Assembly: GCA_951406725.2 (NCBI GenBank) | Contig: OX597818.1 | Location: forward strand, 60,946,001-61,010,000 | Source of the DNA: Octopus vulgaris | Lineage: Eukaryota | Direction of reading: 5' to 3' | Length of the DNA: 64,000 nucleotides | Shown here: piece after piece, positions 17,493-55,817 of the stretch | How positions within the stretch are numbered: position 1 is the stretch's first letter | Layout of the letters: every line of letters starts with the position of its first letter | Position numbers and translations under genes: made by a program | The notes under the pieces: model-generated | What the model was told of the DNA's origin: nothing | Database searches by the model: none | What the model saw: only the letters and a program-made list of their open reading frames with translations

Positions 17493-18082
17493 TATTATGA
17501 AAACAGGGTGACTTGAGACAGTTAAGTTTTAAAATTTCAAGATTTTCAATTTTTCGCCTGCTATCATCCTCTTTTGTCGTTGGCCTCAAAATCCCACATC
17601 ACTTCTACACACTCATTTTCTAATCACATTTGTTGTACAAGTATGATTGGCCGATAGAAAATATGCAGATATAATGGTTGAACGTGCGTGTGCTGTTGGT
17701 ATTTTTTCGTTTCTCATTTGTTTTGTAACCAATTGACCATATGAGTTTATTGTATCCCAGTGAGGTATTGTCTGAATTTCGGGGTTGTGAGTCTATGGGC
17801 AGTATGGTTCATAGTCCGGAAATTATGGAACACACGAATCTATGTTATTTTTTCATGTTGACTATCCTGCATTTTATAGGAGCCCTCGAATCATTGAAAA
17901 AACTGTAAGGGGACCAGCATGTAAAATTTTTTGAATAGTTTGCAAATCATTGCTTTGGATCATTGTCTTTTCTCATGGGATTAAGTTTTCCTTTGTCGGT
18001 TTCATTAACAGGATTGTTATCCATAACGTTAATTTACATTATTTCCATTTGACGGATATTTGTCCTCATCTTGTTTATTCTT

Positions 18083-18125
18083 AACACGTTTCGGCTGATA
18101 TACCCTCCAGCCTTCATCAGGTGTC
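18083..18125 (-). ncRNA. Hammerhead ribozyme-like motif (Penelope-type minimal)
   Basis: GACAC CUGAUGA A GGCUG-loop-CAGCC GAAAC GUGUU; cleavage triplet appears deleted. Confidence 0.6.
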
Positions 18126-18444
18126 TTGGTGAAATTTCAAACCTGGGTTCTCATTCCTAAGGTATTTTTTCAATGTTATGATTATGATTATTATTATTAT
18201 TCAGGTCACTGTTTGGAATCGAACTCAGAATCTTGGGGTTAGTAGTCCACGCTCTTAACCACTACGCCATATGACCGTAGTGTAGTGGTTAAGAGCGCGG
18301 GCCACTAACCTCAAGATTCTGAGTTCGATTCCAAGCAGTAACCTGAATAACAATAACAATAATGATGATAATAATAATTATAATAATAATAATAACATTG
18401 AAAAATACCTTAAGAATGAGAACCCAGATTCGAAATTTCCTAAA

Positions 18445-18490
18445 GACACCTGCTGAAGGCTGGAGGGTATCTCAGCCGAAACGTTCTGTT
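18445..18490 (+). ncRNA. Hammerhead ribozyme-like motif (core substitution)
   Basis: GACAC CUGCUGA A GGCUG-loop-CAGCC GAAAC GUU CUGUU. Confidence 0.55.
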
Positions 18491-18752
18491 AACAACAAAC
18501 AAGATGAGGACAAATATCTGTCAAATGTAAATAACGTAAATGATGTACACAATTCCTCATCTCTTAAATATAGAACCGTATAACGTTAATTATTTTCAAG
18601 TGCATTATTATCGGTGCATGCATGGCTGTGTCATTGTGAAGTTTATTTCCCAATTCCATGATTTTTAGATTCAATCCCATTGCGTACCATTTTGGACAAG
18701 CGTCATCTGCTGCTGACCAAAGCTGACCAAAGCTTGATCAGTGGATTTGCTT

Positions 18753-19004: not shown

Positions 19005-19600
19005 GGTGGCGAGCTGGCTGAAACATTAGCATGCTGGACGAAATGCCCGGCGGTATTTCGTCTGCCGCTATGTTCTGAGTTCAAATTCCGCCGAGGTCGA
19101 CTTTGCCTTTCATCATTTCAGGGTCAATTAAATAAGTACCAGATATGCACCGGGGTCGATATAATCGACTTAATCCGTTTGTCTGTCCTTGTTTGTCCTC
19201 TCTGTGTTTAGCCCCTTGTAGGTAGTAAAGAAATAAATATTTCGTCTGCTGTTACGTTCTGAGTTCAAATTCTGCTGAGGTCGACTTTGCCTTTTATCCT
19301 TTCAGGGTCGATTAAATAAGTACCAGTTACGCACTGGGGTCGATATAATCGACTTAATCCGTCTGTCTGTCCTTGTTTGTCCTCTCTGTGTTTAGCCCCT
19401 TGTGGGTAATAAAGAAATTGGTATTTCGTCTGCCGTTACGTTCTGAGTTCAAATTCCGCCGAGGTCGACTTTGCCTTTCATCCTTTCGGGGTCGATTAAA
19501 TAAGTACCAGTTACACACTGGGTCGATGTAATCGACTTAATCTCTCTGTCTGTCCTTGATTGTCCCCTATGTTTTAGCATCTTGTGGGCAATAAAGAAAT
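19005..19600 (+). mobile_element. Trimeric SINE with 16-bp TSD inside an RTE-type tail
   Basis: aagcatggaaaagtga at 18989-19004 and 19601-19616. Confidence 0.9.
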
Positions 19601-53445: not shown

Positions 53446-55489
53446 TTCTCATCCTCGTCCTTGTCATGCTTACTTTTCCATGCTATCATAGCTTGAACAG
53501 TCTATTGAGGAAGATCATCGATGGTCAGGTGCCTTTCCTGTCACCAACCCTCACCTCTTTCAAAATGAAGATAAGATTTTTCCCATGGCTAGACATGTTT
53601 TTTTTTGTTTTTTTCCTAGAATATCAGAAATGAATGACGCTACCTGTATCACTGTGACCATCTCTCATACTGTCAAGACGGAGACATCAAGACACATGCA
53701 TGTTAGTGTGTCTGTCTGTCTGTCTCCTTGCCTTGACATTGTGTAATAGTCGTAAACAAGTGACACTGTCATACAAGCAGTGTCGTAAACAGTTTCCATC
53801 TACCAAATCCACTCACAAAGTTTTGGCCAGCCTGAGGCTACAGTAGAAGGCCTTTGCCCAAGGTGCCATGCAGTGGGACTGAACCAGGAACCATGTGGTT
53901 GGGAAGCAAATTTCTCAAACCCTGCTCCCCACTGCCGTTGCCATGCCTGCCTGCCTACACCTCAACATTGCCTTTCCTAATTATTTGGTGGAAACATATG
54001 TCAGACGGGGAAAAGGAAGATAACGATAATTGCAAATATCTTCCATTTCTCTAAGTTAAAACTCTTGCGAGTAAGCAAAGATCGTTTATTGATAGGAATA
54101 TTTCTAGATAAAGGTAATTTATTAACGATGTTAATTTCTTGATAAACATTTAATGAATCAGAAGAAGCCATTTGGGATGAAGAGCCATGATCTTTTCTTT
54201 TTCTTCTTACTAACGACTCAACCAAATTATTTACTCGTTATATGTTCTGACAAATCAAGAAATATCAATCTAGTTTCTCATCAAATAATGCAACAATAAT
54301 AGATTATAAATAATGAAATCCATTATTTATACAATAGAAGACTAATCTATTGATTTCTGTATGAAACTCGTTAAGGGCAATAAATAATACCGGATGCAGC
54401 TAAATTGGGTGATAATTAATTACGTCTTTTTATGGTCTGAGTTCAAACCTTGATAGAATCTATTTTGCTTTTTCATTTCTCTGAGATTAATAAATTAATC
54501 GTCAGTCAATATCTGGGAGCTAATTTAATTGATCATTTTAATCTTCAGTCACTGGAATGGCTGCGTGGGTGAGAGGTTTGCTGCTCAGTCATGTGGTTTG
54601 GGTTCAACCCCCTGTGTGGGCACCTTGGACAAATGTCCTCTGCTACATCCCACAGGCCATGGGAGTGGAATTGGTAAATGGAAACTGGAAGGTGTCGGAA
54701 TGGCTGTGTGGTAAGTAGCTTGCTTACCAACCACACAGTTCCGGGTTCAGTCCCACTGCATGGAACCTTGGGAAAGTGTCTTCTACTATAGCCTCAGGTC
54801 AACCAAAGCCTTGTGAGTGAATTTGGTAGATGGAAACTGAAAGAAGCCCATCATATATATATATGTATGTGTGTGTATATATGTTTGTGTATCTGTGTTC
54901 GTTCCCCACAACATCACTTGACAACTGATGCCGGTGTGTTTACATCCCTGTAATTTAGTGGTTTGGCAAAAGGGACAGATACAATAAGTACTAGGCTTAC
55001 AAAGAATAAGTCCTGGGGTCGATTTGCTCAACTAAAGATAGTGCTCCAGTATGGCCACAGTCAAACGACTGAAACAAGTTAAAGAAAAGAATACATAACC
55101 ATGTATGGATGGGTATTTGTGTGTGTGTGTCTGTGTATATGCATTTGTGTGTGAGTGTGCGTCTTCATCTGGAGATTGCACAACAGATGTAAATGAGTGT
55201 CACCTTCTTATAAGTGGTGTCACTCATTGCCAGTCTTCTGTGAAATGTTTGGTCAGAGGTAAATATATTCTTTTGAAACGAATGGTGATTGGCAACAGGA
55301 ATATCCCGCTATAGAAAACCTGCTCAACAAATTACATCCGACCTTTTCAAGCAAGGAAGAATTGAGGATGATGACGACAACTCTTCTTTGAAAGAAGAGA
55401 AATAAGGCTGGTTTGGAAGATGAGTGGAGCATGACTGTATGGGGGAAAAAAGACAATGAATTACAGCAGAGAATGGATGGAAATTAAGA

Positions 55490-55817
55490 CAGTTCTATAT
55501 TTAAGAGATGAAGAATTATGTACATTATTTACATTTGACGGATGTTTGATATACCCTCCAGCTTTCATCAGGTGTCTTATTATTGTTATTACTATTGCTA
55601 TTCAGGTCACTGCTTGGAATCAAACTCAGAATCTTGTAGTTAGTAGCGCATGCTCTTAACCACTATGCCATTTGTTAAGAATGCGGGCTACTAACCACAA
55701 GATTCCGAGTTTGGTTCCAAGCAGTGACCTAAATAATAATAATAATAATAATAATATCGAAAAATACCTTAGGGATAAGAACCCAGGTTCGACCTTTCCC
55801 CAAGATACCTGATGAAG
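55490..55817. mobile_element. Second, decayed copy of the fold-back tRNA-head/hammerhead element
   Basis: Same head-to-head layout; right arm ends at CTGATGAAG. Confidence 0.75.

Follow-up and report, generated by a model that had tools for sequence, protein, structure and literature searches.

What is the imperfect palindrome that occupies positions 18023 to 18591 of a 64-kb stretch of octopus DNA (the window), and how did its two arms come to lie head to head? A sequence-only reading had proposed a Pol III-driven, ribozyme-bearing and non-autonomous element, a SINE/retrozyme hybrid. The analysis of related copies across the 2.8-Gb assembly leads us to a different account. It is rather probable that two terminal repeats of a coding Penelope-like element (PLE) were inserted head to head to give the palindrome, and the tRNA-derived start of the repeat is likely the Pol III promoter of that element.

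The palindrome itself is genuine. The reverse complement of arm 18023-18270 and arm 18271-18591 are identical at 218 of 247 alignment columns, and both arms follow the order read earlier, running outward from a tRNA-like head through (AAT)n and a hammerhead to an AT-rich end or tail. The motif CATATG (18268-73), previously taken as the axis of symmetry, is part of the left head; the arms join at ~18278/18279. While the left arm keeps the full tRNA head, the right arm starts at ~18279-82, and the outer ends are likewise unequal, with an extension of ~35 bp on the right arm only. The proposed 12-bp target-site duplication was recovered as ATAACGTTAATT on both sides, with no third occurrence in the 64-kb window. 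As had been noted for the right arm, T runs of four or more are absent from the sense strand, and the same applies to the left arm. Both hammerheads are indeed decayed: the right one has a CUGCUGA core and a broken first stem-I pair, and the left one lacks 3 nt at the cut site.

A model-based hammerhead check, which the sequence-only reading had called for, gave no support, as the Rfam hammerhead and tRNA models matched neither the window copy nor a better-kept copy at E values up to 10. Rfam scans otherwise returned only hairpin microRNA-type and other sub-threshold matches, and ARAGORN reported zero tRNAs across the 64-kb window. The hammerhead and tRNA motifs thus rest on direct reading of the sequence. 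The A and B boxes of the tRNA-derived heads (Table 1) were assigned against the box consensus.

Table 1. Features of the palindrome, in window coordinates.
Feature	Position	Strand	Remarks
Left target-site duplication, 12 bp	18023..18034	.	last 3 nt overlap the element end
Left arm, pLTR copy without tail	18032..18278	-	complete tRNA 5' end
Left minimal hammerhead	18083..18125	-	3-nt cut-site deletion; predicted inactive
Left tRNA-derived head	18205 to about 18276-18278	-	A box ~18269-18259, B box ~18224-18215
Right arm, pLTR copy with tail	18279..18580	+	~13 nt shorter at the 5' end
Right tRNA-derived head	18279..18345	+	B box 18323-18332
(AAT)n linker	18346..18395	+	length differs among copies
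ATG	18416..18418	+	starts the family's 829-codon frame; frame broken in the window copy
Right minimal hammerhead	18445..18490	+	stem I, core, extra A, stem II, palindromic stem III
Predicted cut of right hammerhead	after 18485	+	core and stem I mutated; PMC4209133
Stretch to first preferred 3' end	18491..18545	+	likely RT start site 1, by analogy with PMC11167929
One-sided PLE tail, ~35 bp	18546..18580	+	continues into the ORF body in full copies
End of one-sided PLE tail	18580	+	likely RT start site 2
Right target-site duplication	18580..18591	.	

A second head-to-head copy of the same repeat is found at 55485-55817 of the window; it is more decayed, has internal deletions, and carries the tail on one arm. 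The window also contains, at 19052-19600, a tandem of three 184-bp copies of a different short repeat, which is abundant and present in many of the fetched loci.

Each arm of the palindrome almost certainly belongs to a decayed PLE of 2.9 kb as its terminal repeat (pLTR). The majority sequence of 57 loci is a 2905-nt unit in which head, (AAT)n, ATG, hammerhead, tail, RT-endonuclease ORF, stop codon and next head follow one another. Its single 829-codon frame begins at the ATG between (AAT)n and the hammerhead, reads through the hammerhead, and stops ~30 nt upstream of the next tRNA head. An endonuclease-like ORF end precedes the head in 4 of 60 loci selected on the repeat, and 26 of 30 loci selected on the ORF end run on into the head-hammerhead-tail unit (five of these 30 have shared flanks on one contig, and two were already in earlier locus sets). 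Directly upstream of the ORF, and in the same direction, loci selected on its 5' part carry the tail (22 of 30), the hammerhead (14 of 30) and the head (5 of 30). The unit thus lies after a PLE stop codon in one set of loci and before the ORF start elsewhere, which does not support a non-autonomous SINE/retrozyme hybrid. Mobilization by PLE machinery, proposed in the same reading, is likely. One ORF-bearing insertion is common to five loci (L152, L156, L157, L167 and L170 of G000:C31), a compared pair having ~4.7 kb in common at 95% identity, and is likely a segmental duplication.

The ORF is poorly preserved in individual copies: the identity of long copies to the majority is mostly 88 to 94%, and most of these copies are broken. 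One natural copy (L187) is nevertheless open for 207 codons from the ATG through the hammerhead, and an 847-aa relative (56% identity over 829 aa) also starts before the hammerhead-coded residues. RT motifs and then a YxGET endonuclease motif occur in the expected order in the family ORF. On a natural fragment, Pfam RVT_1 scored 23.3 bits, below the curated cutoff of 29.6, and GIY-YIG gave no Pfam match on the family's decayed natural fragment; among 18 homologues, PF00078 was detected in 16 and PF01541 in one. A homologue search with an N-terminal fragment returned no matches, which carries little weight. The family has the anatomy of an EN+ PLE, namely an RT-endonuclease ORF, partial-tandem and inverted 5'-truncated pLTRs, a one-sided 30-40-bp tail and a pLTR hammerhead. 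In a tree that contains no named clade reference it stands apart from the genome's other PLEs, and its tentative placement in the Penelope/Poseidon clade follows from anatomy.

The genome's other PLE families, which were found by a Pfam GIY-YIG search and have 781-aa frames and another hammerhead variant, were considered as a partner of the element and rejected because they showed no match to it in 30 + 20 loci. L091-L093, L096, L105 and L110 belong to a separate PLE group, a young one in which many 781-aa frames are open, and some of its copies have, 3' of the ORF, a hammerhead variant whose core is U3-A8 and whose palindromic stem III is 4 nt long. In the P0007 cluster, a ~60% identical relative groups with proteins of the barnacle Amphibalanus amphitrite, which may hint at transfer among marine invertebrates.

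Although decayed in the window, the hammerhead is intact in the family majority, in agreement with its earlier identification as a minimal type-I motif such as PLEs carry. The intact 41-nt motif has 1117 exact occurrences genome-wide, while the reversed control has 0. The majority of 51 arms has all the minimal PLE hammerhead features listed in PMC4209133, and the majority hammerhead is intact and identical across three separately selected sets. Among 72 individual arms, 36 retain an intact core and 17 an intact core and stems. The hammerhead would, by prediction, need either to dimerize or to be assisted by protein in order to be active, and the ends of the insertions would not be set by its cut. 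No RNA read ends at the hammerhead cut were found in three RNA runs, which possibly derive from a different species.

The head of the repeat is tRNA-like, as first read, with T at position 8 in the A box and G at position 53 in the B box, as in tRNA. Its best match is tRNA-Arg among the genome's 35 own tRNA sequences, which represent seven amino-acid types only. Since 22 of 29 head-selected arms extend to the hammerhead, in most cases the head is not a repeat on its own. We consider it quite probable that the head serves as a Pol III start. Two indirect signs, a pile-up of 5' ends and the lack of a TTTT terminator, suggest that Pol III uses it.

In 38 of 103 arms the 5' end lies within 25 nt around the start of the head, and in just 5 it lies further upstream; arms without an inverted neighbor also end there in 14 of 24 cases. 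Exact 20-mer counts are 76 in the 5' part of the ORF, 842 at the endonuclease end, 1013 at the stop codon and 5148 in the head. The counts thus rise 1.2-fold over ~110 nt of the ORF end and then 5.1-fold across the head start, although these ratios are rough because different 20-mers decay differently. The pile-up marks an RNA or cDNA end and not the identity of the polymerase. A small palindrome lies at the head start, where the 5' ends accumulate, and could itself favor template switching there. This coincidence would be expected if the head were a passenger in the same PLE, left by the insertion of a tRNA or SINE long ago, with the ORF expressed by Pol II from the repeat or from host read-through and RT stalling or switching template at the small palindrome. 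We regard this as unlikely. RT would approach a folded tRNA with the 3' side first, whereas it is at the 5' edge that the ends accumulate, also in arms without an inverted neighbor; moreover, the A and B boxes retain tRNA spacing. No A-plus-B-box pair was found between the stop codon and the hammerhead in distant PLEs from metagenome loci, which contain distant relatives only (29 to 48%) and mostly one family, the closest relatives being at 60 to 74%.

Terminator content bears on the same question. T4 runs are absent from the majority sense strand, while 5.1 are expected (P 0.003); P becomes 0.01 to 0.02 when control codon usage is applied and 0.06 when the null is built on dinucleotides, and the test rests on one lineage. 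T3 runs are also fewer than expected (13 versus 24.5). This joint depletion is unlike other PLEs and argues against a passenger head, whereas the marginal T4 result under the dinucleotide null leaves room for one. G4 runs are absent as well (0 versus 2.2 expected, P 0.10). Natural copies contain 24 T4 runs versus 132 expected (ratio 0.18), and distant head-less PLEs contain 100 versus 163 (ratio 0.61), the copies being non-independent in both cases. Two other PLE families of the genome have 8 T4 runs each (6.8 and 5.9 expected), and two short LINE controls have only 0 to 1. In the three RNA runs, possibly of a different species, reads were equal in both directions, 85 to 87% continued into unlike sequence as host read-through does, and neither a start nor an end pile-up was seen. 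Reads of this kind speak neither for nor against Pol III transcripts; their resemblance to host read-through fits a passenger head, as does Kojima's argument that Pol II is obligatory for autonomous elements (PMC10886601).

Could Pol III instead transcribe solo repeats only, as a SINE-like non-autonomous form that uses the protein of Pol II-transcribed full elements? The five-fold excess of head over ORF-end copies would agree with this, SINEs with a Pol III promoter and a hammerhead exist in schistosomes, and internal RT initiation, as in PMC11167929, would render the RNA's 3' end unimportant. We nevertheless find it improbable. In a comparison of 38 short and 47 ORF-linked arms, the two groups have the same majority base in 241 of 242 columns, and no difference at any column survives correction. 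With no diagnostic differences between them, and no diagnostic subfamily found, a separate SINE lineage is not indicated, contrary to what the earlier proposal implied. Transcription of solo repeats would also leave the TTTT-free ORF unexplained, and anole Poseidon requires an RNA that extends to ORF position +172 (PMC11167929), more than most solo repeats would hold. The repeat shares with SINE2 elements a tRNA-derived head with A and B boxes, but no non-coding lineage separate from an autonomous partner was found. Nor do its copies, which are mostly single or in inverted pairs, form the head-to-tail tandem array of short hammerhead monomers that defines a non-LTR retrozyme. The full element's own RNA is likely the simplest source of the short copies.

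The earlier expectation that copies are often palindromic and flanked by duplications was borne out. Following the removal of 5 duplicate loci, clean head-to-head pairs were identified at 44 of 85 loci. Duplications of at least 12 bp accompany 23 of the 44 pairs versus 6 of 150 mismatched controls, although 2 of the 23 matches sit in (TA)n tracts and are possibly due to chance. In 41 of the 44 pairs the tail is on one arm only. In full copies this one-sided tail leads into the ORF body. PLEs are known to leave such traces, namely copies paired back to back, a tail on one side and duplications of 12-13 bp: inverted truncated copies with a one-sided 30-40-bp tail have been described (10.1101/2021.04.23.441226), and pairs of minimal PLE hammerheads on opposite strands, 100 to 700 bp apart, have been reported (PMC4209133).

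Arm reach was compared in 40 one-sided pairs, after L214, whose flank is that of L079, had been removed. The tail-less arm extends further 5' in 20 pairs, the tailed arm in 16, and neither in 4; the tail-less arm is longer by at least 10 nt in 18 pairs and by at least 50 nt in 8. Private variants are held in common at 9% within pairs versus 3.3% between pairs, and 0 of 1000 shuffles reach 9%, which suggests one source RNA or some copying between arms. A simple fold-back of a single cDNA would accommodate the shared variants and the 16 pairs whose tailed arm also reaches further 5', but in 20 of 40 pairs, including the window copy, it is the tail-less arm that extends further 5', and in 18 of 40 each arm has sequence absent from the other, so that we give this origin almost no credence.

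We favor the insertion of two pLTRs of a coding PLE, and its steps can be outlined as follows. Because the terminal repeat starts with a tRNA-type promoter, the element is likely transcribed by Pol III, which would initiate at tRNA position 1 of an upstream repeat, or immediately ahead of it, and could read through 2.9 kb free of TTTT. That Pol III transcribes the whole coding element is plausible, if somewhat short of likely. In the anole Poseidon system, both strands are cut and extended by the protein, reverse transcription begins within the RNA at two positions that flank the tail, and the hammerhead cut is dispensable (PMC11167929). By analogy, the octopus PLE protein would nick both target strands 12 to 13 bp apart, and RT would start inside the RNA at two sites ~35 nt apart. 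Starts at the downstream repeat would give long, ORF-bearing copies, while starts at the upstream repeat would run ~270 nt to the 5' end of the RNA and give the common SINE-sized arms. Two cDNAs, one per nick, would then join end to end and form a palindrome with a single tail. It is tempting to see here an autonomous coding retrotransposon whose 2.9-kb RNA is made by Pol III from a captured tRNA promoter, with terminators purged, cap-less translation and thousands of SINE-looking by-product copies arising through internal RT initiation, a scheme that we put forward tentatively.

Pol III normally makes short non-coding RNAs, and the Pol III promoters of mobile elements have so far been described for short non-coding passengers (SINEs, TRIMp3). 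An uncapped Pol III RNA would need an unusual translation route. If true, a Pol III-run coding PLE would break the Pol II-only rule argued for autonomous elements in PMC10886601, provide a natural example of a Pol III RNA that is translated independently of a cap, and reveal selection against terminators at the level of codons. That a SINE-looking repeat can be the end of a coding element has a bearing on repeat annotation. With a defined start site and two defined RT start sites, the origin of PLE inverted insertions becomes directly testable.

Palindrome, tail, duplication and hammerhead are all known PLE features, and the tRNA-derived head is the new part. A literature search, with Repbase, Dfam and supplements outside its scope, found no tRNA-headed pLTR in a coding PLE, and passages of an octopus repeat annotation (PMC13282606) and of a squid genome report (PMC6962438) make no mention of such a repeat. 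The minimal type-I hammerheads of metazoan PLEs (PMC4209133) share with the octopus motif the extra base between 9 and 10.1, the G10.1-C11.1 pair, the palindromic 15.2-16.2 and the short stem I; at the sequence level, no difference in the motif emerges. In schistosome SINE-like repeats a Pol III promoter is likewise followed by a hammerhead, but these repeats are non-coding and tandem, and the descriptions at hand include no PLE ORF, tail or inverted pairs. Animal non-LTR retrozymes (10.64898/2026.07.22.740005) also consist of hammerhead units related to PLE pLTRs; they form head-to-tail tandem arrays, whereas the octopus copies are dispersed, inverted or single, and the passages considered do not mention a tRNA head.

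The closest parallels in anatomy come from Poseidon_Ac (PAc), a Penelope/Poseidon PLE of the green anole (PMC11167929). Both elements have a single RT and C-terminal endonuclease ORF that starts at the hammerhead, an ATG upstream of the hammerhead cut, an optional tail of 30-40 bp between two RT start sites (likely ones in the octopus PLE) ~110 to 160 nt into the ORF, AT-rich targets and partial tandems. The ATG precedes the cut by ~70 nt in the octopus PLE versus 26 in Poseidon_Ac, for which the passages considered describe no tRNA-derived head. TRIMp3 elements (Cassandra, Helenus and Ajax; PMC10886601) in turn resemble the octopus element in having the Pol III promoter of a small-RNA gene within the terminal repeat. 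The processivity argument made there would not expect Pol III on a coding 2.9-kb PLE: TRIMp3 are short non-coding LTR elements, while the octopus repeat belongs to just such a PLE.
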